A stretch of 54,725 nucleotides of DNA. Origin: Thermoanaerobaculia bacterium. Lineage in GTDB: Bacteria; Acidobacteriota; Thermoanaerobaculia; UBA5066. Location: the NCBI GenBank assembly GCA_035455045.1, contig DATIFW010000253.1:1-54725 (forward strand), given 5' to 3'. The notes beneath the pieces were generated by a model. The model worked only from the letters and a program-made list of their open reading frames with translations, was not told where the DNA came from and did not search any database. Of the stretch, positions 4,235-47,610 are shown in pieces. Numbering within the stretch: the stretch's first letter is position 1; every line of letters begins with the position of its first letter. Both the position numbers and the translations under genes were made by a program.

Positions 4235-4241
4235 TGCGCCG

Positions 4242-4257
4242 ATGTAAACGTTTACAT
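4242..4257. promoter_or_regulatory. Perfect 16-bp palindrome ATGTAAACGTTTACAT, a LacI-family operator candidate
   Basis: Seen directly. It lies 8 nt upstream of the LacI start and about 105 nt upstream of the divergent ABC ATPase start. It matches the general LacI/GalR operator shape TGnAAnCGnTTnCA. It is the most AT-rich spot of this intergenic region. Confidence 0.7.
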
Positions 4258-4361
4258 TCTGGTAAGCGCGGATCCCCGTGTCAAGGCCCATCGCGAGGCC
4301 CGGGGGGTCCGCGGGCGTCGACGCGGCAGGCCTGGGCCTAACATCGGGCCGAGGAGGACGG

Positions 4362-5456: not shown

Positions 5457-5491
5457 CGGCGCGCGGCCGCGCAGCGGTCGGCGGGTGGGAC

Positions 5492-22486: not shown

Positions 22487-23175
22487 CGAGGACCCGGCCG
22501 CTTCGTGCTGCGCTCTCGCTAACCGCATCGCTGTTTTTCTTAGAAGGTGAATGTGCCCTCGCACAACCACCGGCGGCGCAACAGGAGCCGCCCGCGCAAA
22601 CTGCCTCTTTCTCATTACCCTTCGAAGAAAATCTTCAACGCCCTTCCCCTCCTGATCGGACTTCGCTCGACGCGCGCGGGGGTTGGAGTGTGTTTGCCTC
22701 CTACGGCCAGGCGTCCGCGCCTCGGTCGCAGGGGTTCGCGGAGGGCGCAACGCTTTCGGTGACGCGCGATCTTCAGCTCGGGGGTCGCTTCTCGCTGGGC
22801 ATCGAGCTCACGCCGCTCTTCGTCGTGAACCAGACGCGCGTGGACCTGCCTCTCCGCCCGCGCGAGGTCGCGTACGCCGTCGCCGTCGCCCCCCTCCTCG
22901 CGTGGACCTACCTGCCGAGGACCTCGCGTCTCGGTCTGAGGCTCGAGGGGGCCGTCGGCATCTTCTGGGGTTTCTCGCGGATTCCCGCGGAGGGCTCGCG
23001 ATTCAACTTCCTCGACGAGTTCGCGGGGCTCATCCTCGTCCGCGCCGGAACCGATCGCGTCGTCTCACTCGGCATCCGGCGCGTCCACGTCTCGAATCTC
23101 GGCCTCGCCGGGTCGGACAACCCCGGACTGAGCTTCTACTCAGGCGTCGTCGGCCTTTCGTGGCCGGCCCGCTGA
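22483..23175 (+). CDS. Outer-membrane acyloxyacyl hydrolase / lipid A 3-O-deacylase (PagL)-like beta-barrel
   Basis: Signal 'LRAALSLTASLFFLEGECALAQ', alternating beta-strand pattern, C-terminal 'RRVHVSNLGLAGSDNPGLSFYSGVVGLSW' (H-x-S-N motif of the PagL family as I remember it). TTG start overlaps the upstream stop (TTGA). Confidence 0.6.
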   Translation: MTRTRPLRAALSLTASLFFLEGECALAQPPAAQQEPPAQTASFSLPFEENLQRPSPPDRTSLDARGGWSVFASYGQASAPRSQGFAEGATLSVTRDLQLGGRFSLGIELTPLFVVNQTRVDLPLRPREVAYAVAVAPLLAWTYLPRTSRLGLRLEGAVGIFWGFSRIPAEGSRFNFLDEFAGLILVRAGTDRVVSLGIRRVHVSNLGLAGSDNPGLSFYSGVVGLSWPAR

Positions 23176-23190
23176 CGTATCCTTTCGTCA

Positions 23191-25869
23191 GTGCCCCTCG
23201 CCCCCGGAACACGGCTCGGCCCGTTCGAGGTCCTGGAACCGCTGGGATCGGGATCGATGGGCGACGTCTATCGCGCAAAGGACACCCGGCTCGGTCGGGA
23301 CGTGGCCCTCAAGGTCCTGTCGCCCCACCTCCTGTCGGACCGCGAGGGACTCCTGCGATTCGCGCAGGAAGCGCGCGCCGCCTCCGCGCTGAACCATCCG
23401 AGCATCGTCACGATCTACGAGATCGGGCAGGCCGCCGGCATGCCTTATCTCGCGATGGAGTTCATCACGGGAAAGACCGTGCGGGAGATCATTTCGGACG
23501 GCCCTTTGCCCGTCCGCCGCCTCGTGGATCTCGCCGCGCAGCTCACGGACGGGCTCGCCCGCGCTCACGGCGTGCGCATCGTCCACCGGGACCTCAAGCC
23601 GGAAAACCTCATGGTCTCGGCAGACGGGTTCCTCAAGATCCTCGACTTCGGAATCGCCAAGCTGTCGGACTCCTCACCCGCGAAATCCGAGACTCCATTC
23701 CTCACCGAGGTCGGCATGACGATCGGGACGCCTTCGTACATGTCGCCCGAGCAGGCCTCGGGTCGCCCCGTCGATTTCCGTTCCGACCAGTTCTCCGCGG
23801 GACTGATCCTCTACGAGCTCGCGACCGGAAAGAGGGCGTTCCATCGCGCGAATACCCCGGAAACGCTCACGGCCATCATCCGCGAGGATCCGGAGCCGCT
23901 CACCGCGCTGGCACCGCGCCTTCCCGCGCCCGTTCGCTGGATCATCGAACGCTGCCTTTCCAAGGACCCCGACGAGCGCTACGCCTCGACGCGAGATCTC
24001 GCGCGCGATCTCAAGCAGATGCAGCTCAACACGGACGGCCTCTTCGGGACCGAGAGCCTGTCGGCCTCGAGCTCCTCCGCGACCTCCTCCACGGCCGCGG
24101 TGGAAGGCGAGCCCGCCGGCAAGCCGGCCTCTCTCGGGCGCCACGTGGGCCGCATCGTCGCCGCGACGCTGGGCATCCTCGCGCTCATCACGGCCGGCGC
24201 GGGATTCGGGTACTGGCTCCGCCGCGAGGTCAGCGACGCCCCGGCGCCGAGCTGGACGGGATCTCTCGTGATGGGCGGATCGACGCGCGTCCTCGCGCCG
24301 CGAGGATCGCCGGACGGGCGCCGCATCGCATTCCTCACGGTCGTGGGAGGCCTCGCGCAGGTCGCGGTCATGGACCCGTTCTCGGGAGATTGGACCGTCC
24401 TCACGAAGCGGAGGGACGCGGGCGGCTCGGTGCACCGTGTCGAATGGTCCGCGGACGGCTCGCGCCTCTTTTTCGACCGCGTCACGGACGTGCCGCTCGG
24501 TGTCTTCAGCATCCCTTCGCTCGGTGGAGACGAGCGGCTCGTCCTCGACGGCGTCCAGGGGCCCGTGCCGCTCCCCGATGGAAGCCTGCTCGTCGTGAAG
24601 CTCGACGAGGAGCATCGCTTCGTGCTGGTGAGGTTCTGGCCCGACACCGGAAAACAGAAGTCCGTCGGCCCGCCGGTTTTACCCGATTCACCCGACCTCC
24701 TCGCGCGCCTCCTCCCGGACGGAAAGGACATCCTCGTCTGGGGGCGCTTTGCCGGAGAGAAAGACGCGGGCGGCAAGCGCACGCACCTCCTGAATCTCGA
24801 GACCGGCGCCGTGACGGCATTCCTGCCCGGAGTGAGCCTCGCGCCCCCCTTCCTTCCGTTGCGCGACAACCGTCACGTGCTGGCGCGCGTGCAAGCCGGC
24901 GACCTTCATCGCATCGTCTCGGTGCAGCGCGATGGCGCGGCCGTCCAGACGCTGCTCACGGTCGCCTCGCGGCCCCGCTACCTCGTCGAGGGGGAAAGCG
25001 GCGCGCTCTACGTGGGTTTCGCGGAGAGCGCCGGAGACGTGTTGCGCTTTCCCACGGCCGGAGGCGTGCCGGAGCGGCTCGCCGCGATGCCCGCGGGTCT
25101 CGCGATGACACCGGTCGAATTTCCGGACGGCCGCCTGCTCGTGCCGGGGGTGGTGGCCGGCCGCCGGCAGCTCCTCGTCACGGGACCTGAGGGTGAGCTG
25201 CGGCCGCTTCTGGGCTCGTCGGAGGCGGCGTTCCCCCCGGTCGCCGTCTCGCCTTCCGGAATCGTGGCCTTCTTGACCGGCGCCTCGGGCGCGCCACCGC
25301 AGCTCGGCATCGCCTCCATCGCCGACGGGCGGCTCCTGAAGAGGCACGCTCTTCCCAAGGGGACAGTCCCGGCGGCACTCGCCGCGTCCCGCGACGGGAA
25401 GACGTTCTTTTTCGCCGATGCGGGCACCATCTCCTCCCTCGACGGCTCGAGCGGAACGACGAAGGCGCTCTGCGCAGGGCATGGCGTGGCCGGCGATCCG
25501 ACCGCCGACGAGATCGTGGTCCAGCGCAACGCGGCCTCCGGCGTGCAGCTCGTCCGCGTGGCGCTCGCATCGGGAGTCGAGACCCCGATCCTCACGACCG
25601 GGCCGCTCAAGCTGGCTCCGGCGGTCTTCGCGCAGGGAGCGATCGGCCCCGATCGCCGCATCCTCGTCGCGGCCATTTCCCAGGACACGTGGGCTCCCGT
25701 GCCCGCGCTCCTCGATCCGGGCACGGGCAGCATCACGGTCGTGCCGGTCAGCTACGACGGCGAGATCGTGGCGACCGCGTGGGGCCGAAGCGGCCTCGTC
25801 CTCGGCATGGGCCTGGGGTCCCGGGGGGAGTTCTGGGCTTTCCGCCCGCGCGAAACGGCCGGGCCCTGA
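23191..25869 (+). CDS. Ser/Thr protein kinase with TM segment and C-terminal TolB/WD40-like beta-propeller repeats
   Basis: 'LGSGSMGDVYRAKD..VALKVL', 'HRDLKPENLMV', 'DFGIAK', 'GTPSYMSPEQ'. TM 'IVAATLGILALITAGAGFGYWL'. Then repeated 'SPDGRRIAF / SADGSRLFF / LPDGKDILV / SRDGKTFFF' propeller motifs. Confidence 0.9.
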   Translation: MPLAPGTRLGPFEVLEPLGSGSMGDVYRAKDTRLGRDVALKVLSPHLLSDREGLLRFAQEARAASALNHPSIVTIYEIGQAAGMPYLAMEFITGKTVREIISDGPLPVRRLVDLAAQLTDGLARAHGVRIVHRDLKPENLMVSADGFLKILDFGIAKLSDSSPAKSETPFLTEVGMTIGTPSYMSPEQASGRPVDFRSDQFSAGLILYELATGKRAFHRANTPETLTAIIREDPEPLTALAPRLPAPVRWIIERCLSKDPDERYASTRDLARDLKQMQLNTDGLFGTESLSASSSSATSSTAAVEGEPAGKPASLGRHVGRIVAATLGILALITAGAGFGYWLRREVSDAPAPSWTGSLVMGGSTRVLAPRGSPDGRRIAFLTVVGGLAQVAVMDPFSGDWTVLTKRRDAGGSVHRVEWSADGSRLFFDRVTDVPLGVFSIPSLGGDERLVLDGVQGPVPLPDGSLLVVKLDEEHRFVLVRFWPDTGKQKSVGPPVLPDSPDLLARLLPDGKDILVWGRFAGEKDAGGKRTHLLNLETGAVTAFLPGVSLAPPFLPLRDNRHVLARVQAGDLHRIVSVQRDGAAVQTLLTVASRPRYLVEGESGALYVGFAESAGDVLRFPTAGGVPERLAAMPAGLAMTPVEFPDGRLLVPGVVAGRRQLLVTGPEGELRPLLGSSEAAFPPVAVSPSGIVAFLTGASGAPPQLGIASIADGRLLKRHALPKGTVPAALAASRDGKTFFFADAGTISSLDGSSGTTKALCAGHGVAGDPTADEIVVQRNAASGVQLVRVALASGVETPILTTGPLKLAPAVFAQGAIGPDRRILVAAISQDTWAPVPALLDPGTGSITVVPVSYDGEIVATAWGRSGLVLGMGLGSRGEFWAFRPRETAGP

Positions 25870-30248: not shown

Positions 30249-31859
30249 ATGAGCCTCCATCCGTGGCAGCGCTATCAGGCCCTCTCCCTCCACGTGCCGA
30301 CGCTCTCGCTCCTCGTCGACCTCTCGAAGACGTGCCTCCAGGACGACGCGCTCCGTCGAGATCCGCTCGTCTCGACCGCTTTCCCCGCGGCCTTTGCCGC
30401 CATGGAGGCGCTCGAGGCCGGCGCGATCGCGAACCCCGACGAGAAAAGGCGCGTCGGCCACTACTGGCTGCGCGCGCCGGAGCGCGCTCCCGACGCGGAG
30501 ACGAAAGCGGCGATCCAGGAGACGCGGGGGCGGATCGAGGCCTTCGCGGAGGCCGTCCACGCGGGTGGCCTCGCGCCGCAGAAAGCCCCGCGCTTCACGA
30601 ATCTCCTCGTCGTCGGCATCGGCGGGTCGGCTCTCGGACCGCAATTCGTCGCGGACGCGCTCGGCTCGCCGCGCGACCCGCTCCGGCCGTTCTTCTTCGA
30701 TAACACGGATCCCGACGGCATGGCCCGCGAGCTGTCGCGCATCGCGTCCACCGAAGGCGGCCTTCCCGCGGCGCTCACGGTCGTGATCTCCAAGTCGGGC
30801 GGGACGAAGGAGACGCGGAACGGGATGCTCGAGGCGGCGGACGCCTACCGCCGCGCGGGCCTCGACTTCCAAAAGCACGCGGTCGCCGTCACGGGTCAAG
30901 GCAGCGAGCTCGACGAGGTCGCCGCGCGCGGGGGGTGGCTGAACCGGTTCCCGATGTGGGACTGGGTGGGCGGACGGACGTCGGAGCTCTCCGCCGTCGG
31001 CCTCCTGCCCGCGGCGCTCCAGGGCCTCGACGTGGACGGCCTTCTCGCCGGCGCCGCTGCGTGCGACGAGGCGACTCGCGTCCCGGAGGTCGCGAAGAAT
31101 CCGGCCGCGATGCTCGCGCTCGCGTGGTACCGCGAGACGGGCGGGCGCGGGCAGAAGGACATGGTCGTCCTCCCCTACAAGGACCGGCTCCTCCTCTTCT
31201 CGCGCTACCTCCAGCAGCTCGTCATGGAATCGCTCGGGAAGGAGAAGGACCTCGCGGGGAACGTCGTCCACCAGGGCATCGCCGTCTACGGCAACAAGGG
31301 CTCGACGGACCAGCACGCGTACGTGCAGCAGCTCCGCGAGGGCGTGCCGAACTTCTTCGTGACGTTCGTGGAGGTCGCGTGCGACCTCGAGAACGCCGCC
31401 GCGTCGCTCGCCGTCGAGCCCGACGTCACCTCGGGCGACTACCTCCACGGCTTTCTCCTCGGCACGCGGAAGGCGCTTTACGAGAACGGGCGCGGCTCGA
31501 TCACGCTGACGCTTCCGGACGCCTCCGCGCGTTCCGTCGGCGCCCTCATCGCGCTTTACGAAAGGACGGTCGGCCTCTACGCGCAGCTCGTCGGGATCAA
31601 CGCGTATCACCAGCCCGGGGTCGAGGCCGGGAAGAAAGCCGCGGCCGCAGTCCTCGCCTTGCAGGGAAGGCTCCTCGAGGATCTCCGCCGGGAGAAGGGC
31701 CTCTTCCGGACGGCCGAGCGCATCGCGGCCTCTCTCGGAGCGCCGGAGGAGACCGAGACCGTCTTCAAGGTGCTCGAGCACCTCGCGGCGAACCCCGACC
31801 ACGCCGTCGCGCGAAAGCCCGGCCCGACGCACTTCCTCGCGACATACGGGATCAGATGA
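30249..31859 (+). CDS. pgi: Glucose-6-phosphate isomerase
   Basis: '[13 protein letters not shown]', '[13 protein letters not shown]', '[14 protein letters not shown]', '[15 protein letters not shown]', '[13 protein letters not shown]'. Confidence 0.95.
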
Positions 31860-33426
31860 AGAGGCGGTCACGCATGAGGACGCCTTCGAGCGGCTCTTTC
31901 GGGTCGCGGCAGATCCAGATCGGGCGGCCGTTCTCGTAGGGCATCGCGAGCGGGTGGCCGGTCCTGCCTGCCTCCTCGACTCTCTCGAAGACGGAGGTGA
32001 GCGTTTCGCGGCGTCCTCCGATCACGACGAGCGGACCTTTGAAGGGGGCGATCCGTTTCGCGTCCGCGACGCTCCAGAGCCAGTAGGAATTGTGCGGACA
32101 GAGGACCTTCGGTGCGCCGAGGAGAGCGCCGTATCTCTCCACCGCGGCCGCCTCGCCGTAGTTGCGCGCCCAGACGCGGGCCGTCTTCCGCTCGGCCTCC
32201 GAGAGCCTTCCCGCGACGCGGGCGACCTCCGCCGCCATCTCGGGCCATCCGAAGCGGTCCGCGAAGTGCTGCGGGAGAACGCCCTTCTCGTATCGCTCCG
32301 TCGCCGGCGCGCCGATGCCGAGGCGTCCCGCATAGAGGGCGAACGTCTCGGGCGAGAGGAGCGGGATCGCGAGGGGTGCGAGTCCGACGCCGGTCGCGAG
32401 GAGGACGGCCGCATAGGCGATCGCCGGCGCCGCGCGCCGGCCGCGGTGCAGGAGGCGTCCGGCCGCGACGCCGCCCGCGGCGAGGAGCGGCGCGAACGAA
32501 GCCGCGAGGTACTCGGCCTTGCTCGTCCGGTTGGCGAGCAGGATTCCGAGCGTCGCGAGAAAGACGACGCCGAGGGGACGGAAACTCCGCCCGTCCCGAG
32601 CCGCGAGGAGCCAGGCGAGGCCCGCGATCCAGACGGGCGCGGCGAGCGGGTGAAAGAAGAGAACGAGGTCCCTCGCGAACGTGAGGGGTGAGGACGGGAC
32701 GTACTTCTCCGCCGCCGCGCGGCGCATGAACTCGAGCGTGGCCCACCCGTGCGCCCAGTTCCAAAGGACGTATGGCGCGAGGCCGAGCGCCGCGATCCCG
32801 CCCGCGAGCCACGGCCCCGTCGTCCCGAGCCAGCGCCTCGCCGGCGTCAGGACGAGCCCGGCGGCGATCCCGAATGCCAGCCAGAGGACGCTGATTTTGT
32901 TCAGGAGACCGAGCGCGAGGACGAGGCCGAGGAGGAGCCAGAGACGCGCCGCGCGCAGGCCGGGCTCTTCCTCGAGGATCGCGGCGAGGAGCGTCGCGGC
33001 AAGCGTCCACAGCAGGACGTCGAAGGCGTTCATGGAGTAATAGCCCGTCAGCCCCAGCCACGCGGGCGAGACCGCCGCGACGAGCGCGGCGAGGCCCTGT
33101 GCGGCCGCCCCGCCGCCGAAGCGTCGCGCGAGGAGGCCCGTGAGGACGACGACGGCGGCGCCGCACAGGGCCGGCGGGACCATGAGGGCCGCGGCGGAGT
33201 CGCCGAACACGGCGCGCCACACGGCGAGGAAGAGGATCGAGAACGCCGGCTGATCGACGTATCCGGCGGCGGGGTGCCTCGCGCACGCGAGGTAGTACAG
33301 CTCGTCGCGGAAGATCCCGTACCGCCCCACCGACGCGGCGTGGAGCGCCAACTGCAGGGCGGCCGCGGCGGAGAGAACAGCCCATGCCGGGCGCGCCCGG
33401 GCACGGTCGAGCGACATCATGTCCAA
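31852..33426 (-). CDS. GT39/GT83-type (ArnT/PMT-like) integral-membrane glycosyltransferase
   Basis: '[34 protein letters not shown]' followed by about 10 TM helices and a C-terminal soluble domain. TTG 33426 or ATG 33420 start. Confidence 0.8.
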
Positions 33427-33576: not shown

Positions 33577-35037
33577 TCAGTCGATGGCCGGTAGCTCCGA
33601 TAGGCCGGCGGCCCGGACTTCTCGTCGCATGACGTCGTCGAGGGCGCGCGTCACGTCCTCTGACGGCGGGCGAGGCGGGCACTTCGCGAGCCGGCGCTCG
33701 ACCTCTTTCGCGGCCTCCTCGTGCGCCCAGGGGGCGCCCCGCGCTTCCCAGTCACCGTAGGTGTCGCGGGCCACGAGCGCCGACGGGACCGTGAGCTCCA
33801 GCCGCCAGTGCTTCCGGGTGTGGGGATGCGAGAGGAACTCGGCCGATTCGACGACCTGCCGGATCAGGCCGGCGGCGCCATCCCCGCCGCGGTCGATCCC
33901 GCGCACGAGCCGGAGCGCCATGCCGCAGGCCTCGTGGTCCAGGAGGAGCTTCTCGAACGACTGGCAGATCTCGAAATCGAGCATTCCGGGGCCCGAGACG
34001 ACGTTGATGCCGGCCAGAGCCGCGAGGAGCGCCCCCACCCCGCTCTCGAGTCCCGCCTGATAGTCGGGGCACTTCGAGTCCGAAAGCCCCATGTAGGCGT
34101 GCGTGGGAAGGCCGAGGCGCTTGCCGGCCTGCGACGAGGCGAGGTTGATCATCATCGTCTCCACGGCGCCCATCGGGGTCGTGCCGTGGCGCATGTCCAT
34201 CGCCGCAGGCGAGCCGCCCCAGATGATCGGCGAGCCGGGCCCCGCGAGCTGGTGGATGACGACGCCGCTCAGGTTCTCCGCGCACTGCTGGACTGACGCC
34301 TCGCGGAGCGTGACCGGCGACGTCGCTCCGGCCAGCGGCATGGAGACCAGCTCTGCTGGGATTCCCGTGCGGGCGCAGTCGACGAGCGCCTGGCAGGTCA
34401 GGTCGCTCCACTTCAGCGGAGGGCTCGGGCAGCAGTCGAACACGGCGAGGGGACGGCGCCTCAGCTCCGCGTCGCTGCCGCGCACGGCGAGGAGCAGCTC
34501 GCGCATGGGGGCGAAGCCATCCTTCCGAAACGTGCCGGTGACGACCGGCTTTTGGGCGCTGCGGAGGATGAGGTAGAGCCTGTAGCGGTCCGCAACCTCG
34601 CCCGGGACGTCACCCGGCGTCAGCGCCGTCGACTGGGCGGCGTAGTTCGGCAGGCCGTCGACGAGGCGGGCGAACCGGACGACGTCCCTGGTCGCGATCG
34701 CCCGGCGTCGTCCGGTGGAAGCGTCGAAGAGATGAATGGCCGCGGAGCCGGGATCGAAATGGACCCGATCTCCGCCGAGGTCCATCGCGGGAGCGCCGTC
34801 CCGATCGAAAAGCTCGATGCGCGACGGAACCTTCGCCAGCGCCTCGCGAGCCATCGTTTCCGGAATCCTGAAGCGGCCGCCCGCTTCCGAGGCTCCCCCG
34901 TCCCGGAGAAGGGCCTGCGCGTCCTGGTTCTCGACGAGGACCCCCGACTCCGAAAGAACGTCGAAGGCGTCCTGCAAGACGCTCTCGACGTCAACGGACG
35001 AAAGAAGCGACACGGTGGGTCTCAACGGCGTTGCCAT
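33577..35037 (-). CDS. MttB-superfamily (trimethylamine methyltransferase family) substrate:corrinoid methyltransferase, non-pyrrolysine type
   Basis: 486-aa uninterrupted ORF. TIM-barrel MttB-like blocks 'VHFDPGSAAIHLFD', 'LAVFDCCPSPPLKWSD', 'PAELVSMPLAGATSPVTL', 'IIWGGSPAAMDMRHGTTPMGAVE', 'VVSGPGMLDFEICQSFEKLLLDHE'. No in-frame TAG. Confidence 0.85.
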   Translation of the reverse strand: MATPLRPTVSLLSSVDVESVLQDAFDVLSESGVLVENQDAQALLRDGGASEAGGRFRIPETMAREALAKVPSRIELFDRDGAPAMDLGGDRVHFDPGSAAIHLFDASTGRRRAIATRDVVRFARLVDGLPNYAAQSTALTPGDVPGEVADRYRLYLILRSAQKPVVTGTFRKDGFAPMRELLLAVRGSDAELRRRPLAVFDCCPSPPLKWSDLTCQALVDCARTGIPAELVSMPLAGATSPVTLREASVQQCAENLSGVVIHQLAGPGSPIIWGGSPAAMDMRHGTTPMGAVETMMINLASSQAGKRLGLPTHAYMGLSDSKCPDYQAGLESGVGALLAALAGINVVSGPGMLDFEICQSFEKLLLDHEACGMALRLVRGIDRGGDGAAGLIRQVVESAEFLSHPHTRKHWRLELTVPSALVARDTYGDWEARGAPWAHEEAAKEVERRLAKCPPRPPSEDVTRALDDVMRREVRAAGLSELPAID

Positions 35038-35044
35038 CAGCTCG

Positions 35045-35740
35045 TCACCTCGCGGGAAGAACGCGATGCCCTCCTCCGGCGGGCCGCCGGTAGCGACAGT
35101 GCGGGAGGCCGCAGGTGTCGCATCCGGAGAGCCCGGACCTCGGCGCCCGCTCGGCGCCGATCCAGAGGGCGAAGGAGATCGACTTGCGCGGAACCATCAT
35201 CATGGACGAATTCAAGGAGACGCCGAGCGCCTCGTGAGGGAGGAAGGAGAAAAGGGCCTTCTGGGCGGACAGGGGCCACCGGCCGTACCCGGGGCTGACC
35301 CGGCAGCCGACGTCCAGCTCCCCGCTTGTCCTGCCGCCGACGACCCGCGCGCTCAGCCTGTTCGCGGCTTCCTCGGCGGCGGCACTTCCCGCGGCGTCCA
35401 GCAGGAGGGCGCGCGAATCCTCTCCCCGGCCGAGAAGCTCCGTCACGCGGCGCTCGATCCCGCCGCCCGCGGTGACGAGGCCGAGGACGAGGCCGTCGGC
35501 GGGTTCCGCCGGGAGGCCGACCTCGCCGGCCGAGGAGACTGGCAGTCTCCGGAACCCGCCACGCGCGGCCGCGAGCGAGCGGGCCTCGCGAAGGGCGTCT
35601 TTCAAAAGGGGCTCGAGCCGCGTCGCCGGGCGCCGTCCCTTCGGATAGCCGAGGAAGTGGAGGACCTCGCTCTCCGGAATGGAGAGTCGAAGCCGCGAGA
35701 CGATCACGGGGCGGCCTGCCGACGAAGCGGCAGACGACAT
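35045..35740 (-). CDS. Stand-alone homologue of the methionine synthase (MetH) reactivation/AdoMet-binding domain
   Basis: 'RVSPGYGRWPLSAQKALFSFLPHEALGVSLNSSMMMVPRKSISFALWIG' parallels '[52 protein letters not shown]' in the metH of this window. C-terminal 'CDTCGLPHC'. ATG 35740 lies 23 nt after the upstream stop. The stop lies 7 nt before the mttB start. Confidence 0.7.
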   Translation of the reverse strand: MSSAASSAGRPVIVSRLRLSIPESEVLHFLGYPKGRRPATRLEPLLKDALREARSLAAARGGFRRLPVSSAGEVGLPAEPADGLVLGLVTAGGGIERRVTELLGRGEDSRALLLDAAGSAAAEEAANRLSARVVGGRTSGELDVGCRVSPGYGRWPLSAQKALFSFLPHEALGVSLNSSMMMVPRKSISFALWIGAERAPRSGLSGCDTCGLPHCRYRRPAGGGHRVLPAR

Positions 35741-35763
35741 CGCATCGTGCCTCGGGAGGCGGG

Positions 35764-36654
35764 TCACGGTCGGGACTCCTTCGAGTGGAGACGGCGCGCG
35801 AGCGCCCGGATGAAGCGCGGATCGGTTCCGCAGCATCCGCCGACCAGCTCGACGCCGAGGGAGGCGACCCGAGCCATCTCCTCGGCGAAGGCCTCCGGCG
35901 CCTGCGAGTAGAAGACGGCGCCGCCCTGCATCTCGGGCGCCCCGGCATTGGGCTGGATGACGAGCGGGAGACCCACCGCGGCGCGGGACTCCTCGGCGAG
36001 CAGCCGCATGTCGGCGCTGGCGAGCGTGCAGTTCGCGCCGACGGCGTCGGCCCCCGCCTCGCCGAGCGATCGGAGCGATCCCGCCAGTGCGTCTCCCATG
36101 ATCGTGAAGAAGCCGCGCTTCTTCCTCTCGAAGGTCAGCGACACCATCACGGGAAGGGAAGAAGCGCTTTCCTTCAAGGCTTCGAGGGCGATCAGGGCCT
36201 CGCGCAGGTCCGTCATGGTCTCGACGTGCAGGGCGTCCGGCGCGGCGGCGGCCAGCGCCCGCCCCTGCCGAACGAAGGCCTCCTTCCAGGACCGTCGGTC
36301 GCCCGTCCCGACCGGAGGGAGATATTCGCCCGTGGGACCGACGTCCGCGAGGACGAAACGTGCGCCGGATTCCCGGGCGAGCCGGACTGCTTCCGCGTTG
36401 AGCGCCTCGCACCGGTCGGCGAGAGAGGACCGTGCGAGCCGGATCGCGTTCGCCCCGAAGGTCGCCGTGTGAACGGCGTCGCTCCCGGCGCCGACGTAAT
36501 CGCCATGCGCACGGCGGACGTCGTCGGGGCGCGAAAGGACCCACGACTCGGGCGCCTCGCCTCCGCCGAGCCCTCGCGCGATGAGCAGGCTTCCAAGGCC
36601 TCCATCCAGGAGTGTCGTCTCTCGGCGGCGCAGGCGCTCGGCGAAGGCGTTCAC
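35764..36654 (-). CDS. Zn-dependent homocysteine/thiol S-methyltransferase domain protein (PF02574 type)
   Basis: 'TLLDGGLGSLL', 'VGANCTLAS', 'LVGGCCGTDPRFIRAL' (Cys and Cys-Cys zinc ligands). Same three motifs as in the metH and Hcy-MT/MTHFR genes of this window. GTG start at 36654, 25 nt after the corrinoid-protein stop. Confidence 0.85.
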   Translation of the reverse strand: MNAFAERLRRRETTLLDGGLGSLLIARGLGGGEAPESWVLSRPDDVRRAHGDYVGAGSDAVHTATFGANAIRLARSSLADRCEALNAEAVRLARESGARFVLADVGPTGEYLPPVGTGDRRSWKEAFVRQGRALAAAAPDALHVETMTDLREALIALEALKESASSLPVMVSLTFERKKRGFFTIMGDALAGSLRSLGEAGADAVGANCTLASADMRLLAEESRAAVGLPLVIQPNAGAPEMQGGAVFYSQAPEAFAEEMARVASLGVELVGGCCGTDPRFIRALARRLHSKESRP

Positions 36655-36679
36655 ACGGATCTTCCCGTCTTGATGATGA

Positions 36680-37324
36680 TCAGGCGCGCCGGGAGGCGTT
36701 TGCCAGCGACTCGGCGACCGCGACGGCGCGAAGGGCGTTCTCCGCCCAGGCTGCGCCGATCTGCGCGGCCCAGGCCGCCGTCGTCGGCGCGCCGCCGACG
36801 AGAAGCCGCGGCCGCGGAGCGAGCCCGAGGGATGGAATGCCATCCGCGATGGCCTTCTGGACCGGCATCGTGGTTGTCAGGAGCGCCGAGGCCGCGATGA
36901 TGTCGGCGCCGTTCTCCTTCGCCCGTGCGAGGAAGCGGTCGACGGACACGTCGCTTCCGAGGTCGTCCACCTCGAATCCCCCAGCCGAGAGGAGCGTCGC
37001 GACGAGAGTCTTCCCGATGTCGTGGAGGTCGCCCTGGACCGTTCCGATGACGACCCGGCCCTTCGAGACCTGTCCACCGTGGCTCTTCCGAAGCGCGGGC
37101 TGGAGGACGCCCATGGCGGCTTTCATCGCCTCCGCGCCCTGGACCAGCTCCGGAAGGAAGTACTCCCCTTCTTCCCAGAGATCGCCCACCTTTCTGATCC
37201 CGGCCGCAAATCCCTGCTCGATCGCCGCGACGAGGTCGCCGTCGGCGTCGACGACTCCTTCGGCCAGCCTCCTCGCCCGAGGCGCGTCCCCCTGGACGAC
37301 GGCTTCCCTCATCTCTCTGTACAT
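36680..37324 (-). CDS. Corrinoid (cobalamin-binding) protein, MtgC/MtbC/MetH-B12-domain type
   Basis: Cap helix region 'AIEQGFAAGIRKVGDLWEEGEYFLPELV'. Base-off/His-on motif 'GTVQGDLHDIGK' (DxHxxG), 'SALLTTT', 'LVGGAP'. ATG 37324 is preceded by GGAG. Confidence 0.9.
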   Translation of the reverse strand: MYREMREAVVQGDAPRARRLAEGVVDADGDLVAAIEQGFAAGIRKVGDLWEEGEYFLPELVQGAEAMKAAMGVLQPALRKSHGGQVSKGRVVIGTVQGDLHDIGKTLVATLLSAGGFEVDDLGSDVSVDRFLARAKENGADIIAASALLTTTMPVQKAIADGIPSLGLAPRPRLLVGGAPTTAAWAAQIGAAWAENALRAVAVAESLANASRRA

Positions 37325-37371
37325 CAGGACCTGCTCCAGACTCCCATTCTCCGACTCTTCAATGTTCGATT

Positions 37372-37950
37372 TCAGGGTTTGAGGCTCGCGACGAGGGCGT
37401 CGAAATCCTTTCCGGCGGCCGCCACGCTCCGGCGCGGGCCGGTGAGCTTGAAGAACAGGGCTCCGTTCGGTCCCTCGGCGATCGCGCCGCGGAGCGCAAA
37501 GCCGCTCTTCGCAGCCGGCGAGGCGCCCATTCCCGTTCCCGCGGAGTACGTTCCCGCAGCCGTCACGAGCGTCACGGGCAGCGAGCCGACGCGCATGAGA
37601 CTGCGAGTGGGCTTCGGGTCGCCGGCCGCGGCCGCGAACTGCGAGAACCACCGCTCCACGTTCGCGTCCACGCTCCCGCCCTTGCCCGGGCCGAACCAGA
37701 AGACGGCCATCTCCGGCTTTTCGGCGTCCCCCGCCGAGGCGGGAAGGAAGTACGTCGCGAGCCTCATCGCGGACGACGGCCCGGGCACCCACGCCTTCGG
37801 CACCGCCCACGTCAGCCCGCCGCCGGAGGTCACGGGGAAGACGGGCGCCGGTGTCGCGGCAGCGGCGGGCGGGGAGGCATGCGACGAGACGAGCTGGGCG
37901 AGTAGCGCGAGGACGGCGGAGACCTGCATGAGGCCATGATATTTCGTCAT
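37372..37950 (-). CDS. Secreted hypothetical protein
   Basis: Signal '[25 protein letters not shown]'. GGAGG lies immediately upstream of ATG 37950. I recognise no family. Its 3' end is the parent of the repeat. Confidence 0.6.
   Translation of the reverse strand: MTKYHGLMQVSAVLALLAQLVSSHASPPAAAATPAPVFPVTSGGGLTWAVPKAWVPGPSSAMRLATYFLPASAGDAEKPEMAVFWFGPGKGGSVDANVERWFSQFAAAAGDPKPTRSLMRVGSLPVTLVTAAGTYSAGTGMGASPAAKSGFALRGAIAEGPNGALFFKLTGPRRSVAAAGKDFDALVASLKP
37375..37432 (-). repeat. Direct repeat copy B (the functional 3' end of gene 37372-37950)
   Basis: See copy A at 33458-33515. Same orientation, 3917 nt apart. Confidence 0.8.
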
Positions 37951-38703
37951 ACTGCCTCCGTGGCGAGCCTCTCGGACCTGTCGCGAAAGAACCGCCTCTT
38001 CATGGCGATGTACCGGTACCGCACCCTCGATCCCGTGCCGTTCACGAGGCTCGCGAAACCGATCGAAAAGGCGAGCGTCGCGCTCGTGACGACGGGCGGC
38101 GTTCACCTGCCGTCGCAGGTTCCGTTCGACACCGAGTTGAAGGGCTGCGACGTGTCGTTCCGCGAGATCCCGGCGGACGTGGACGTTGCGACGCTCGGAA
38201 TCGCGCACAAATCCGATGCGTTCGACCAGAGCGGATTCCTCGCGGACCGCAATCTCGGCTTTCCGCTCGTGAGGCTGCGCGAGATGGCCGCGCGCGGCGA
38301 GATCGGCTCGCTGACCGCCCGCGCGCTCTCGTTCATGGGCTCGATCACGGCGCCCGGGCGGCTCGTGAAGGAGACGGCGCCTGCGGCCGCCGCGCTCCTC
38401 CAGGCGGACGGCGCCGACGCGGCGTTCCTCGTCCCGCTTTGACCCTTGTGCCATCAGACCGTCGGTCTGATCGCGGGCGAGCTCGAGCGGCGCGGCATCG
38501 CGACGACGTCCGTCACGATGCTCCGTGAGGTCACGGTGAAGGTGCGGACGCCGCGCGCCCTCGCGGTGCCGTACGCGCTCGGCTATCCGCTCGGGAAGCC
38601 GGGCGACCCCGCGCTCCAGACCCGGATCCTCCGGGCTGCCCTCCGACTCCTCGACGCCCCGGGGCCCCCTCCCGTCTTGCGCGACTTCGAAGACAGTGAG
38701 TAA
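37936..38703 (+). CDS. Probable selenoprotein of the glycine/sarcosine/betaine/D-proline reductase subunit B family (PrdB-like, ~255 aa) with in-frame UGA (Sec) at 38440-38442
   Basis: Track ORFs 37936-38442 and 38446-38703 are in the same frame and are separated only by TGA plus one codon. Read-through gives '...[37 protein letters not shown]...', a U-x-x-C motif at the position where PrdB/GrdB carry Sec. Flanking blocks '[10 protein letters not shown]', 'SFREIP', '[19 protein letters not shown]' fit the family as I remember it. The start is uncertain (ATG 37936, GTG 37960 or ATG 38002). Confidence 0.65.
38453..38471 (+). promoter_or_regulatory. SECIS-like hairpin 10 nt downstream of the in-frame UGA
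   Basis: AUCAGACC-GUC-GGUCUGAU: a perfect 8-bp stem, or 7 bp with a CGUCG loop, with G-U in the apical loop. This is the position expected for a bacterial SECIS. Confidence 0.5.
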
Positions 38704-38726
38704 GAGAGCGATTGGCGCGGAAGGGC

Positions 38727-38757
38727 ATCAGGGACCCGGCCCTCGGGTTTCCCTGAT
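38727..38757. terminator. Hairpin between the convergent selenoprotein and purD genes
   Basis: ATCAGGGA-CCCG-GCCCT-CGGG-TT-TCCCTGAT, giving 8 + 4 bp of stem. It abuts the purD stop. There is no clear U-tract on either strand, so terminator function is uncertain. Confidence 0.35.
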
Positions 38758-40068
38758 TCACCGCAGCATGGAGCCGGAGCGCTCCACCAGGATCTCGAGC
38801 GCCTTCTTTCCGATGTCGCGCCGGAAGTGGGCGCCGTCGAAGCGGATCTTGCCCGCCGCTTCCTTCGCGGTCGCGAGGGCCTGAGAGAGGCCCCGCCCGC
38901 GGGCGCAGACGTTGAGAACCCGCCCGCCCGACGTCACGAGGCGGCCGTCGGGGGTCCGGGCCGTGCCCGCGTGGAAGACGAAGACGCCTTCCATGGCCTC
39001 GGCGTCCTCGATTCCGGAAATGACCCGGCCGCGCTCGAAGGGCCCCGGATAGCCTTCCGAGGTCATGACGAGCGCCGCGGTCGCCTCGCGCCTCCACCCG
39101 ATCTGCGCGTCCTCGTCGAAGCGGCCGCGCGCGGACCCCAGCAGGAGCGGGAGGAGGTCGCCGTCGAGCCGGAGGAGGACCGCCTGCGTCTCGGGATCTC
39201 CGAACCTCGCGTTGTATTCGAGGACGTACGGGTTCAGGCCCGCCTCCAGGATGAGGCCGACGAAGAGCACGCCCCGGAACGGGCGTCCCTCGTCCGCCAT
39301 GCCCTTGAGCGTCGGCTGCACGATGAAAGCGAGCACGTCGGACGCCGTGGACGCGTCGAGGAGAACCGACGGGCTGTGCGCGCCCATCCCGCCCGTGTTC
39401 GGTCCCCGGTCGCCGTCGAAGATCTTCTTGTAGTCCATCGCCGTGGCGAGCGGCAGCGCGCGCTCCCCGTCGCACAGGACCATGAAGCTCACCTCGTCTC
39501 CGGAGATGAACCGCTCCACCAGGATGCGGTCCCCCGCCGAGCCGAAGACGCGGTCCTCGAAGAAGAGCTTCAGCGCGCGCTCGGCTTCCTCGGCCTCCTG
39601 CGCCACGACGACGCCCTTCCCGGCCGCGAGGCCGTCCGCCTTGAAGACGCACGGCAGGCCGAACGATTTGAGCGCGCGCTCCGCCTCGCCGCGCGTCTGG
39701 CACACCTCGGCGTCCGGCGTCGGGATGCCGTACTTCTTCATGAAGAGCTTCGAGAAGACCTTCGAGCCCTCGAGCTCGGCCGCGAGACGGTTCGGCCCGA
39801 AGGCCGTGAGGCCGCGGCTGGAGAGCTCGTCCACGAGGCCGAGCGTGAGCGGCAGCTCGGGCCCGACGACGGTCAGGTCGATCTTCATCGACTCGGCGAA
39901 GTCCGCCAGCTCGACGATGTTCTCGACGCCGATCGGAAGACACGTCGCCTTCGATGCGATACCGGGATTCCCCGGTGCCGCGAAGATGTCCGTGACGCCC
40001 GGCGCCTGCGCGAGCTTCCACACGAGCGCGTGCTCGCGACCCCCGGAGCCGACGACGAGGATCCTCAT
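38758..40068 (-). CDS. purD: Phosphoribosylamine--glycine ligase
   Basis: 'MRILVVGSGGREHALVWKL', 'ADGLAAGKGVVV', 'GPNTGGMGAHSP', 'LEYNARFGDPETQ'. Start at ATG 40068. Confidence 0.95.
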   Translation of the reverse strand: MRILVVGSGGREHALVWKLAQAPGVTDIFAAPGNPGIASKATCLPIGVENIVELADFAESMKIDLTVVGPELPLTLGLVDELSSRGLTAFGPNRLAAELEGSKVFSKLFMKKYGIPTPDAEVCQTRGEAERALKSFGLPCVFKADGLAAGKGVVVAQEAEEAERALKLFFEDRVFGSAGDRILVERFISGDEVSFMVLCDGERALPLATAMDYKKIFDGDRGPNTGGMGAHSPSVLLDASTASDVLAFIVQPTLKGMADEGRPFRGVLFVGLILEAGLNPYVLEYNARFGDPETQAVLLRLDGDLLPLLLGSARGRFDEDAQIGWRREATAALVMTSEGYPGPFERGRVISGIEDAEAMEGVFVFHAGTARTPDGRLVTSGGRVLNVCARGRGLSQALATAKEAAGKIRFDGAHFRRDIGKKALEILVERSGSMLR

Positions 40069-40149
40069 CTGGTCAGGGACCAAGTCTAACCGACCGGGCC
40101 TTGACGGCCGCGCCCGGCACGCCGTACCCTGACGGCGGCTCTTTGACCG

Positions 40150-40285
40150 GGTTTCATCCAGAGCGGCGGAGGGACGGGCCCTGCGATGCCGCGGCAACCG
40201 GTCCGGTGCGCCCCGAAGGGCGGCGGACGCCAGGTGCCAAATCCCGCTCCGGACCGCACGATGCGGCCGGAGGAAGATGAGATCG
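40150..40285 (+). promoter_or_regulatory. SAM-I (S-box) riboswitch aptamer
   Basis: UUCAUCCAGAGCGGCGGAGGGACGGGCCCUGCGAUGCCGCGGCAACCGG...GGUGCCAAAUCCCGC...GGAAGAUGAGA. Contains the S-box hallmarks: P1 UCAUC/GAUGA, AGAG-GGNGGAGGGA kink-turn region, GGCCC, GGCAACC, GGUGCCAAAUCC. Confidence 0.85.
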
Positions 40286-40340: not shown

Positions 40341-42233
40341 ATGAAGAAAGACATCCGGGAGCGGCTGAAGGCCGAGGTCCTCCTCACGGACGGGGCGATG
40401 GGGACGCTGCTCGTGTCACGAGGCGCGCCTGCCGAGGGCCCCCGCTCGCCGAACTCGGTCGCCGCGCCCGACCTCGTGCGCGAGATCCACGACGACTACG
40501 TGGCGGCGGGTTCGCAAGTCCTCTCCACGAACACGTGGGACGCGAACCGCGCGAAGCTCTCGCGGTTCGATTGGGCCGATTCGCTCGAGAAGATCAACCG
40601 CGCGGCCGTGAAACTCGCCCGCGCCGCGGCCGAGGGGGAATACGTCTACGTGGCGGGATCCGTCGGCCCGCTCGGACAGCTCGTGAAACCCTATGGCCCG
40701 CTCACGCGCCTCCACGTGCGCGAGCTCTTCACGGAGCAGATCCGGATCCTCCTCGAGGAGGGCGTGGACCTCCTGTCCTTCGAGACGTTCTCTTCGACGC
40801 TCGAGGCCACCGAGGCCGTCCGCGCCGCGCGCGCCCTGTCGAACCAAATCCCGATCGCCGCCTCGATGACGTTCCTCTCGGACGGCAAGACGAGCTTCGG
40901 CGAGGACGCCGCGGACGCGCTCCGGGCGCTCGTCGCGGCGGGCGCCGATGTCGTCGGGATGAACTGCACGGTCGGGCCCCAGGAGGCCTTCGAGATCTTC
41001 TCTCGCGTCGCGGGGTCGGTCGACGTGCCCGTCTCCGTGCGGCCGAACGCCGGATATCCGTGGGTCGTCTCGGGGCGCACCGTCTACCCCGCCACGCCCG
41101 ATTACTTCCGCCAGAGTGCGCGGGATTTCCTGCGCGCCGGCGCGGCGCTCGTCGGAGGCTGCTGCGGCACCGCCCCCGAGCACGTCGCCGCGATGGCGCG
41201 CGAGATCGCGGGGAAGGCGCGCGCTGTGCCGGCTCCCGCCCCGGTCGAACGCGTCGTCGTGACGGAAGGCCGCGCGGCGCGCCCGAAGGAAGCGCCGCTC
41301 GAGACCTCGGCCCTGAAGCGCAAGCTCGCCGACTCGCACGCTCTCGTCGTGACGGTCGAGGTCGAGCCGCCGAAAGGCATCGACGCCTCGGCGGCCGTGG
41401 ACGGCGCGCGCACGCTGAGGGCCCTCGGCGTGGACGCCATCAACATCACGGACAACCCGATGGCGCGGCTCAGGATGTCGTCCATCGCCGTCGCCCATCT
41501 CATCCGGACCGAGACGGGCGCCGAGACGATCTTCCATTTCTCGCCGCGCGACCGGAACGTGCTCGGCATCCAGTCGGACTTGCTGGGCGCGGCCGGGCTC
41601 GGCATCAAGGCGCTCCTCGTCGTGGGCGGCGACCCGCTGAAGATCGGCGATTACCCCCAGGCCAAGCCGGTGGGCGAGGTCGACACGCTCGGCCTCCTGC
41701 GCATCGTGCGGGGCCTGAACGCGGGCACGGATCTCGCCGGCGGCGCGATCGGCTCGGCCACGTCCTTCGCGATCGCATGCGCGGCGAATCCCGCGGCGCG
41801 GGACCTCGACGTCGAGATCTCGAAGCTCTCGGCCAAGATCGAGGCGGGCGCCACGTTCGCGCAGACGCAGCCCGTCTACGACGTGGCCGCACTCGACCGC
41901 TTCTACGCGCGTGCCGAGGCGCACGCGATCCCCGTCCTCATCGGCCTCATTCCGCCGAAGGGCCTGAAGCAGGCCCTCTATCTCGCGAACGAGGTTCCGG
42001 GCATGGTCGTGCCCGAGGAGATCCTCACGAGGATGCGCCGCGCGGCCGAGAAAGGCCCCGAGTTCGAGGAGGAAGAAGGCCTCGCGATCGCCGTCGAGCT
42101 CGCGCGCGCGATCGGCGAGCGCTCGCGCGGCCTTCACATCATGCCGATGGCGCGTTACGAGGCGGTGAAGCGGATCGTCGAGGCGCTCGGTCTCGGACAG
42201 GCCGGCGACCGGCCTGCGAGGGCCGTCTCGTGA
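40341..42233 (+). CDS. Bifunctional homocysteine S-methyltransferase / 5,10-methylenetetrahydrofolate reductase (YitJ-type fusion)
   Basis: N-terminal half: 'LLTDGAMGTLL', 'VGMNCTVGP', 'LVGGCCGTAPEHVAAM'. C-terminal half: MetF/MTHFR TIM barrel 'VTVEVEPPKG', 'INITDNPMA', 'AQTQPVYD'. Confidence 0.9.
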   Translation: MKKDIRERLKAEVLLTDGAMGTLLVSRGAPAEGPRSPNSVAAPDLVREIHDDYVAAGSQVLSTNTWDANRAKLSRFDWADSLEKINRAAVKLARAAAEGEYVYVAGSVGPLGQLVKPYGPLTRLHVRELFTEQIRILLEEGVDLLSFETFSSTLEATEAVRAARALSNQIPIAASMTFLSDGKTSFGEDAADALRALVAAGADVVGMNCTVGPQEAFEIFSRVAGSVDVPVSVRPNAGYPWVVSGRTVYPATPDYFRQSARDFLRAGAALVGGCCGTAPEHVAAMAREIAGKARAVPAPAPVERVVVTEGRAARPKEAPLETSALKRKLADSHALVVTVEVEPPKGIDASAAVDGARTLRALGVDAINITDNPMARLRMSSIAVAHLIRTETGAETIFHFSPRDRNVLGIQSDLLGAAGLGIKALLVVGGDPLKIGDYPQAKPVGEVDTLGLLRIVRGLNAGTDLAGGAIGSATSFAIACAANPAARDLDVEISKLSAKIEAGATFAQTQPVYDVAALDRFYARAEAHAIPVLIGLIPPKGLKQALYLANEVPGMVVPEEILTRMRRAAEKGPEFEEEEGLAIAVELARAIGERSRGLHIMPMARYEAVKRIVEALGLGQAGDRPARAVS

Positions 42234-43902
42234 AGATCGCCTTCATCGTCATGGCCGTCGCGATCCTCGGATGCGCTCGGACGCGCCGGGAGAAAGAGAG
42301 CGACGTCTCGTACGAGATGCGCGGCCGCAAGACGATCGGTCAGTCGACGGGCGCCCCGCCGGCCCCCGCCTTCATCGGCAGAGGCATCATCGCCCCGACG
42401 CCCCGGGCGCTCGGCGCGCTTCCCCGGTTCGGCGCCGAGACTCCCATCCCTGCGGTGCTTCCCGCGTTCGTCGGCTCGGCGATTCGCGGTCCGGATGGCC
42501 ATGCGCCGCAGACCGCGGACAAGCTCGTTCTGCTCGCCCTGCTCAAGGCGCGGCGCTTCGGGGACCTCGACAGGTGCTTCGAGGACTACCAGACCGCGTT
42601 CGAGCTGGACGCGCGCAACGAGTACTGGCCCACGGACGCCCTCGAAGCGTTTCGGACCGCAGATGCCGGCATCGGGATGCTCGTGGGCGACTGGGTCGAC
42701 GAGTCTCCGAAGCCCTGGGCGGCGTTCGCGGCTCGCGGCGCGCAACGCCACGCGCTCGCGTGGAGCCTGCGGGGAGGTGGTTACGCCGACACCGTTTCGG
42801 ATGCGGTCTTCGCGGAGTTTCATCGCCACGAAATCGCGGCGGCCGAGGACCTGCGCAAGGCCATCAAGCGCCGCCCGCGGTTCATCGCCGCGCATTACGT
42901 CCTCATCCAAATCCTCCGGGGAAGCCCCGCCGCGCGCCGGGTGCTGGATGAGGCGCTCGAGGCCTGTCCGGAATGCTTCCAGCCGCGTGCGGCGTACCTC
43001 GACGCGCTCTCACCGAAATGGGGAGGTTCCTACGAAGAGATGGAGGCGTTCGTGCGCGAGGCGATCGCCTCCAATCCCAGCCCGCGCCTGAAGCTGCTTC
43101 GCGGATTCATCCTCACGGAACGCGCGGCACAGGCGATGAACGAGAACAATCCAGCTCAGGCAATGGCCTTCGAGAACGAGGCGCTCGGGGCAGGCGAGCA
43201 CTGGGGCGCTCTCTACAGGCGCGCCGTGATCGCTTCCAGTCTCGGGCAGCCCGCGGCCGCGCTCATCGACCTCGACCGCGCCTTCGAGCTGCGTCCCCAG
43301 GCGGCGTCCCTGGCCGATTTCCGCGCGCAGGTGCGCGCCAAACTCGGGCAGGTCGAGCTGGCGATCCAGGACTTCGACCTGGCACGGAGACTGGATCCCG
43401 CGCGCCCGCGTCCCGAACAGTACGCCCAGCTCGCGGACACGCTCGTCCGCCGGAGCAACGACGCGCTCGCGACCGGCGGAACCGAACGAGCGGGGGCGCT
43501 GCGCACGCTCGCGGACAATCTGAAATCGGCCGCCGCGCCTCCCGGCGCGGCAGCCCCGTACGTGCCTCTCACCCCGACAGCGGAAGTTTTCACGGATCCG
43601 GGCGCGGCTTTGCGCGCGCAGATCGCCTCGCTGCCGGACGACTACGCCGCCTACCGCCGGCTCGGCTTTCCGCTCCTGAACGCGCGGCGGTCGCAGGAGC
43701 TCGAGGAGCTTTGGACTTCGTGGGTCCAGAAGCATCCGGACGACCCTCGCGGGTACTGGGAGCGGCATACCGCCTACTCACAGCGGCGCGACTTCGAGCG
43801 CCGGGACGAAGACCTGCGGCAGGCGTGCACGCTCGGTCACGCGGAGGCATGCCGCACGCAGGAGATCAACGCGGCGTTACGCGCCCGCAGGGCGGGAGAA
43901 CG

Positions 43903-43906
<4 letters not shown>
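42230..43906 (+). CDS. Lipoprotein with helical-repeat (TPR / DUF4034-like) region
   Basis: GTG 42230 overlaps the upstream stop (GTGA). Lipobox 'MAVAILGC'. Helical repeats ('[45 protein letters not shown]'). Its stop overlaps the metH ATG (ATGA). The DUF4034 resemblance is from memory only. Confidence 0.65.

Positions 43907-47610
<3,704 letters not shown>

Follow-up and report, generated by a model that had tools for sequence, protein, structure and literature searches.

The closest described relatives of the gene reported here are the selenocysteine (Sec)-containing protein PrdB of the D-proline reductase of Clostridium sticklandii and C. difficile (TIGR04483; Kabisch et al. 1999, as cited in PMC13188914), the protein B subunits GrdB, GrdF and GrdH (about 430 amino acids) of glycine, sarcosine and betaine reductases, and a set of environmental selenoproteins catalogued as 'Proline reductase PrdB' (pfam07355), which carry a U-x-x-C (UxxC) redox motif in which U is Sec. 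In the Sargasso Sea the environmental proteins, represented by 42 genes, ranked third in abundance among selenoprotein families (Zhang, Fomenko & Gladyshev 2005, PMC1088965), and in the Global Ocean Sampling data they were among the top families, with 235 Sec forms and 110 Cys forms (Zhang & Gladyshev 2008, PMC2398784). PrdB-like selenoproteins have also been noted in Anaeromyxobacter and Geobacter, and selenoproteins have been reported from Acidobacteria (PMC1794560); the family is listed in reviews of 2022 and 2026 (PMC9312934, PMC13188914). We examined a 54,725-nucleotide stretch of DNA (contig DATIFW010000253.1; hereafter the window) from a Thermoanaerobaculia bacterium of the Acidobacteriota, and describe a gene at 37960-38703 on its plus strand that is a further member of this family, catalogued since 2005, functionally orphan and environmentally common. 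An earlier reading of the window from its letters alone (the original prediction) had pointed to an orphan PrdB-like selenoprotein of a kind found outside Clostridia, and such proteins are documented in the three surveys cited above (PMC1088965, PMC2398784, PMC1794560). Homologues are named 'glycine/betaine/sarcosine/D-proline family reductase selenoprotein B' by NCBI and 'D-proline reductase PrdB' by JGI.

The window protein shares with the environmental family its match to PF07355, a size of about 25 kDa, the UxxC motif, the occurrence of Sec/Cys pairs, a bacterial selenocysteine insertion sequence (bSECIS) with G in a small apical loop, and an existence outside Clostridia without reductase operons. 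The catalogued members are marine and the present one belongs to soil or sediment Thermoanaerobaculia; otherwise nothing essential distinguishes them in a comparison made by description, not by direct alignment.

The gene appears in the window as two open reading frames (ORFs). We consider it highly probable that these encode one Sec-containing, stand-alone relative of PrdB and GrdB which works by the mechanism set out below. The first ORF (37936-38442, 168 aa) closes with TGA at 38440-38442, and past the TGA the frame runs unbroken through CCC and TTG (38446), the beginning of the second ORF (38446-38703), to TAA at 38701-38703. The G+C content of third codon positions is 0.88 both upstream and downstream of the TGA, and in frame the redox motif reads U-P-L-C-H-Q-T. 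The original prediction had joined the two ORFs, which share one frame and are separated by the TGA and a single codon, into a protein of about 255 aa with the UGA in a U-x-x-C motif. Coordinates, frame and motif were reproduced; the length holds for read-through from the ATG at 37936 (255 aa), but the likely start, GTG at 37960, gives 247 aa. The features of the gene are as follows.

37948-37953, plus strand: CATACT hexamer 6 nt 5' of the GTG start, a candidate -10 box, at an offset conserved in the clade
37936-37959, plus strand: alternative ATG start adding eight residues (MIFRHTAS), probably unused, conserved in the closest relatives only
37960-38703, plus strand: complete selenoprotein gene of 247 codons including Sec161, from GTG start to TAA; stand-alone, PrdB-like, GRDB superfamily
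38440-38442, plus strand: in-frame UGA read as Sec161 in GTG numbering (169 from the ATG), as indicated by the TGA/Cys alignment and by continued coding
38449-38451, plus strand: TGC codon of Cys164, the presumed resolving thiol of U-P-L-C, invariant in the smaller alignment (A3) and present in at least 90% of the larger one (A4)
38453-38471, plus strand: bSECIS, an 8-bp stem (38453-38460 with 38464-38471) with apical loop GUC (38461-38463), as indicated by fold, model limits and covariation
38701-38703, plus strand: true stop TAA; the frame after the Sec codon has 82-95 codons in nearly all relatives with long enough contigs

Evidence that the UGA is a Sec codon comes from homologues that carry Cys in its place. 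A protein search returned 765 matches, most of which are 160-171 aa long, cover 63-66% of the query and end at the same point, while a minority are full-length (245-249 aa). In the aligned full-length homologues a Cys stands exactly at the UGA column (VPV-C-P[ML]C-NQ). A profile search gave at least 3,768 clusters at 90% identity, mostly fragments of 160 aa, with about 29 full-length Cys forms scoring higher, and clustering at 50% identity left 3,503 superfamily representatives at E<=1e-3. An exact-protein lookup of the window's own 168-aa fragment matched no record.

For comparison at the DNA level we used 13 reference-genome loci and 80 metagenome loci (labelled L001 onwards where they need to be told apart), the closest being from metagenome-assembled genomes (MAGs) of Thermoanaerobaculia/Acidobacteriota. 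In the 93 loci with a locatable motif the Sec codon is TGA in 86 and TGC or TGT in seven, so the alternation of Sec and Cys that the original prediction had proposed to look for at this column was found. The TGA loci are 38-90% identical to the window gene and include a Pseudomonadales MAG at the lower limit. A pseudogene lesion or an assembly error has next to no chance of accounting for this codon: the in-frame stop itself, and nothing more, speaks for such an origin, which is refuted by the recurrence of the TGA in 86 independent loci and by purifying selection downstream of it.

That selection is visible in the codon-position entropies, which are 0.67/0.55/1.35 for the 50 codons before the TGA and 0.73/0.50/1.29 for the 66 codons after it. 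Counts of synonymous and non-synonymous changes are alike on either side of the UGA, and the frame of 82-95 codons is retained in nearly all relatives whose contigs are long enough. Given the similar entropies and the length of the downstream frame, translation therefore continues past the UGA. Were the UGA instead a true stop, the product would have 160 aa, and the 85 downstream codons would be a separate small gene, initiated two codons on at TTG or ATG, or would be untranslated. Public gene calls split the gene in the same way, and the second codon after the TGA is indeed ATG in 69 of the 86 loci and TTG in the window. We nevertheless regard termination at this codon as very unlikely. The supposed start codon is one that is unable to initiate in 16 of the 86 loci (CTC, ACG, TTC, GTC, ACC, AAT, TTA), and the Cys-type homologues are continuous and have the same Met or Leu residue within CPxC. 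Termination would also sever the redox motif and one confidently predicted domain, and would leave unexplained why a hairpin at SECIS distance covaries and conserves G-U in its loop.

TGA terminates 22 of the 32 Pfam-supported genes in the window, and the genetic code is therefore standard. The only other junction in the window that resembles read-through of a TGA is at 23173, between a PagL-like gene (22273-23175) and a Ser/Thr protein kinase gene (23191-25869) in the same frame; it was rejected as a selenoprotein, the two being unrelated adjacent genes.

The hairpin AUCAGACC-GUC-GGUCUGAU begins 10 nt 3' of the UGA. It is a perfect 8-bp helix and folds alone with -9.7 kcal/mol. In the bSECIS model (PMC13188914) the loop has 3-9 nt with G in one of its first two positions, the stem has 4-16 bp, the distance from UGA to loop is 16-37 nt and the minimum free energy is -7.5 kcal/mol or lower; with a loop of 3 nt (GUC), a stem of 8 bp and a distance of 18 nt, the window hairpin lies within every one of these limits, as do 25 of 30 distinct Sec-type hairpins from relatives. 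The equivalent segment of Cys-type loci reaches merely 0 to -5.3 kcal/mol.

Covariation was analysed in 65 distinct 45-nt sequences that start at the TGA and align without gaps. Across the 8-bp helix 94.4% of the cells hold standard pairs; sliding the 3' partner by one to three columns lowers this share to 12-43%. Changes on both sides of a pair account for 49 cells, across four pairs, and the covariation score of 0.264 (shuffled mean 0.106) was not reached in any of 500 shuffles. Pair 2 alternates between U-A (32 sequences) and C-G (25), coupling the wobble base of a His or Asn codon to the first base of an Ile or Val codon. Pair 6 alternates between A-U (42), G-C (10) and U-A (9), coupling the first base of a Thr, Ala or Ser codon to the third base of a Gly codon (GGU/GGC/GGA). 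Because one side of each of these pair switches is synonymous, the constraint is one on the RNA. The loop opens with an invariant G, followed by U in at least 90% of the sequences. The original prediction of a perfect hairpin with G-U in its loop, placed 10 nt after the UGA where a bacterial SECIS would be expected, is thus borne out in position (38453-38471), in its agreement with the bSECIS model and in the covariation of its stem.

Recoding of the UGA to Cys or another standard amino acid would need a suppressor tRNA, either a tRNA-Cys of the selC* type or an acidobacterial allo-tRNA. Suppressors resembling tRNA-Sec have been described, the allo-tRNAs in Acidobacteria and the selC* tRNA-Cys(UCA) in other phyla (PMC5389517). 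The same study reports no selC* in Acidobacteria, the RNA element fits a canonical SelB-type bSECIS, and the TGA with its hairpin is common to loci that are 38-90% identical, the Pseudomonadales MAG among them. The family is moreover an accepted selenoprotein family (PMC1088965, PMC2398784), and we judge decoding by such a suppressor to be highly improbable.

The protein, with Sec replaced by Cys, matches the Pfam family GRDB (PF07355) with 29.1 bits (E=8e-7), above the gathering threshold of 22 bits; this confirms the assignment in the original prediction. The match spans only positions 200-344 of the 347 in the profile, which correspond to the C-terminal half of GrdB. Among the NCBIfam models D-proline reductase PrdB (TIGR04483, E=4e-35) matches best and is colinear over the whole length, but its score of 121.4 bits stays below the equivalog cut-off of 300 bits. 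The GrdF, GrdH, GrdB and 'various selenoprotein B' subfamily models score 38-46 bits, each under its cut-off (65-800 bits); for the GrdB/F/H models TIGR01918 and TIGR01917 the values are 38.1 bits against 65.45 and 37.6 against 602, and neither is passed. Judged by these profiles the protein is a PrdB-sized member of the GrdB/PrdB superfamily, and its scores, below the cut-offs, set it apart from both true PrdB and true GrdB.

With the PrdB of C. sticklandii and C. difficile it shares the length class, colinear homology and Sec in an equivalent UxxC, in which a selenol nucleophile and a resolving thiol are presumed for both proteins. It differs in being encoded by a monocistronic gene in housekeeping or variable contexts, without prdA, prdC, prdD/E or prdF as neighbours. 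With GrdB, GrdF and GrdH it has in common the Pfam family and a homologous C-terminal half that includes the Sec site; unlike them it lacks, at 247 aa, the N-terminal half of roughly 200 aa, has UxxC in place of the UxxCxxC of GrdB, and has no grdA, grdE, grdC or grdD beside it. Some relatives are longer, and their extensions contain no known domain apart from one relative with a helix-turn-helix fusion. The relative P0327 has, around its redox motif (residues 255-314), a sub-threshold match to the UGSC selenoprotein family (PF24696; 19.8 bits, E=9e-4), a resemblance that hints at a possible distant relationship between two abundant environmental families of UxxC selenoproteins.

A structure was predicted with AlphaFold2 for the Cys homologue P0025, which is 54% identical to the window protein, from an alignment of 39 sequences. 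The model has a mean predicted local distance difference test (pLDDT) value of 95.6 and a predicted template modelling score (pTM) of 0.93, and shows an alternating beta/alpha fold. Strand 154-158 is followed by a loop that holds the Sec/Cys position, and helix 164-176 has Cys164 at its N-terminus; in the model this is the usual geometry of a redox-active CxxC. A Foldseek search of the PDB with this model gave no significant match (best E=0.09, TM 0.35), and a sequence search of the PDB gave none for the family. Invariant or nearly invariant polar residues (R68-E-I-P, H83-x-S85, D89, D96-x-N98, R105, S124-x-M-G-S128, R134, D150, D153) suggest, as a pattern of conservation, that the protein has an enzyme active site and is not simply a redox carrier.

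From these observations we infer the actual insertion of Sec, a catalytic cycle and a reductant. By analogy with known systems, the hairpin 10 nt past the UGA at 38440 would work as a bacterial SECIS and recruit SelB with Sec-tRNA(Sec), and the UGA would then be decoded as selenocysteine and not as a stop; such recoding would be the reason why gene callers split the gene into pieces of 160 or 168 aa and of 85 aa. As in PrdB and GrdB, the selenolate of Sec161 may act as a nucleophile on a small substrate or a disulfide, Cys164 may resolve the intermediate to form a selenenyl-sulfide, which would be returned to the reduced state by a general reductant, either a dithiol or a flavoprotein. This cycle would proceed with no pyruvoyl partner (PrdA/GrdE) or GrdA encoded nearby, unlike that of a true D-proline or glycine reductase.

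Several points weigh against this account. The genes selA, selB, selD and selC were not found in the window by Pfam scans of about 60 ORFs and by tRNA scans. The Sec:Cys ratio of 86:7 is skewed toward near relatives of a query that is itself of the Sec type. The mechanism is drawn only from the analogy with PrdB and GrdB and from the UxxC geometry in the model of a Cys homologue of 54% identity. No tRNA-Sec or sel genes occurred in the 48 loci fetched from relatives. ARAGORN called a tRNA-SeC(TCA) at 43465-43559 on the minus strand, which we rejected as a false positive: its position is antisense within metH, no Rfam tRNA or tRNA-Sec model matches it either at gathering threshold or with E<=10, and the metH of relatives yields no such call. 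A check of the window for Sec machinery could be misled by it.

Translation probably starts at GTG 37960, 24 nt 3' of the ATG, which would give 247 aa and place the Sec at position 161. We placed it there because of observations in relatives. The homologous N-terminus is V/M-ASLSDLS; the stretch of eight residues upstream of it is interrupted in L004 by a stop codon just 5' of the V/M-ASLSDLS start and diverges in L008 and L009; L009 has an ATG at the position equivalent to GTG 37960; and the codon 160 positions 5' of the Sec codon is GTG in 43 loci and ATG in 35. The resulting 247 aa is also the length of the Cys-type homologues. A hexamer xATACT lies 6 nt 5' of the GTG or ATG start in nearly all loci of the Thermoanaerobaculia clade (at the same offset in L001-L009 and L019-L052). 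No Shine-Dalgarno sequence was seen upstream of the selenoprotein start in the loci of this clade, and a scan for the sigma-70 consensus upstream of the gene did not find a full promoter. The hexamer without a Shine-Dalgarno sequence would fit a -10 box and an mRNA that is leaderless and often initiated at GTG. In several more distant lineages TAnnnT-like motifs stand 6-12 nt upstream of the start.

The gene lies among the following neighbours.

30249-31859, plus strand: pgi
31852-33426, minus strand: PMT_2 glycosyltransferase
33577-35037, minus strand: MttB-family methyltransferase of 486 aa, with no in-frame TAG
about 35045-35760, minus strand: weakly MetH-reactivation-domain-like ORF (in the frame of 35045-36544)
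35764-36843, minus strand: homocysteine S-methyltransferase (PF02574)
36680-about 37333, minus strand: MtgC-like corrinoid protein
37372-37929, minus strand: hypothetical protein of 185 aa with a signal-peptide-like N-terminus (MQVSAVLALLAQLVSS...)
37960-38703, plus strand: selenoprotein gene
38758-40197, minus strand: purD
40151-40283, plus strand: S-adenosylmethionine (SAM) riboswitch (RF00162, 72 bits), upstream of the S-methyltransferase/MTHFR gene and metH
40341-42233, plus strand: S-methyltransferase/MTHFR
ORF 42973-47610, plus strand: metH, with its true start further in

The order from pgi through the selenoprotein gene to purD, MTHFR and metH is retained in eight of the nine closest relatives (L001-L005, L007-L009); in L006 the comparison of gene order gave no match besides the selenoprotein gene itself. 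The riboswitch at 40151-40283 overlaps the 5' end of the longest opposite-strand ORF for the divergent purD. In the spacer to the convergent purD (38715-38767) there is a GC-rich hairpin, with -27.4 kcal/mol for a 70-nt segment, which is a candidate bidirectional terminator; it has no U-tract and so went uncalled in the terminator scan.

The 185-aa protein encoded divergently at 37372-37929 has no match in Pfam or NCBIfam. Its ATG is 30 nt from the selenoprotein GTG and 6 nt from the upstream ATG, and with the starts so near to each other the divergent promoters must overlap coding sequence. L001-L004, L006 and L007 carry this gene, and L005, L008 and L009 lack it. In L004 a partial second N-terminus of the selenoprotein (89 aa, 48% identity) and a partial copy of the 185-aa gene occupy 7536-8363, about 2 kb 5' of the intact gene; this is the remnant of a local duplication. 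A plus-strand ORF at 37022-37939, which overlaps the longer selenoprotein ORF at ATGA and at first seemed conserved, was considered as a co-transcribed upstream partner and rejected as a shadow of the 185-aa gene, with which it shares wobble positions.

The genes at 33577-37333 on the minus strand form a 'split MetH-like' cluster close to MTHFR, metH and the SAM riboswitch, and their content points to a B12-dependent route that would pass methyl groups from a quaternary amine to homocysteine. Of the ten closest loci only the window and L003 have this MttB/corrinoid cluster, and as a variable insertion the MttB/corrinoid/S-methyltransferase genes (33.6-37.3 kb) were rejected as a functional partner of the selenoprotein.

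No conserved partner was found. Pfam scans revealed no GrdA, GrdE, PrdA or PrdC-like genes in the window, in agreement with the original prediction that the gene stands alone without GrdA, GrdE or PrdA-like partners. In distant lineages the flanking genes are usually on the opposite strand and unrelated, encoding amidase, FAD synthetase, multihaem cytochromes, tetratricopeptide repeat (TPR), Rieske and metal-resistance proteins. In a census that took 115 flanking ORFs out of 40 diverse loci, 138 Pfam families were recorded, none with more than five occurrences, and GrdA, PrdA and GrdE were not among the 25 most recurrent. ORF clustering, spot annotation and this census gave no neighbour conserved across lineages, the synteny being lineage-specific only. 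In one locus of a distant lineage, L094 (positions 1570-5893), a same-strand gene for a VTT-domain/FAD-dependent pyridine-nucleotide-disulfide oxidoreductase (NF004991, 802 bits) ends 10 nt upstream of the Sec-type gene, and a gene for an ArsS arsenosugar radical-SAM (seleno)protein (TIGR04167) lies downstream. The oxidoreductase of this single case could be the reductant, or could reflect a metalloid-related context.

These surveys bear on whether the protein truly serves as subunit B in a reductase for D-proline, glycine, sarcosine or betaine, with partners (PrdA/GrdE, GrdA, GrdC/D) encoded elsewhere in the genome. PrdB is its best NCBIfam match, full-length and colinear, with the UxxC Sec motif common to both, the JGI label of the homologues says as much, and a betaine-type MttB/MtgC-like methyltransferase cluster adjoins the gene in the window and L003. 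We hold such a role to be unlikely. The PrdB equivalog score is 121 bits against 300 and that of the selenoprotein B subfamily 38 against 65, the protein has neither the N-terminal half of GrdB nor UxxCxxC, and the partners are missing from the window and from the most recurrent flanking families of the census. Characterised systems have operon-clustered genes (PMC13188914), and the MttB cluster is confined to two of the ten closest loci.

The family is large and, around the Thermoanaerobaculia lineage, consists mostly of Sec forms. For annotation the gene is a further instance of a systematic error: in the protein collection searched most members are stored as 160-aa fragments ending at the Sec codon, and because the records end there the 247-aa protein and its active site are missing from most of them. 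The family has been an orphan since 2005, and the window makes its function no more testable; what is added here is a well-supported covarying SECIS, a fold predicted with high confidence for a close homologue and a clear negative result on conserved partners. A more specific role, to which we give a distinctly small chance, is that of a self-sufficient reductase which works without a pyruvoyl partner on an N-methylated amino acid or osmolyte and which, in some Thermoanaerobaculia, is tied to the adjacent 'split MetH' system. If this were true, selenium-dependent C-N chemistry would be joined to methyl-group and methionine metabolism in soil bacteria, and one of the most abundant orphan selenoprotein families would have a function.

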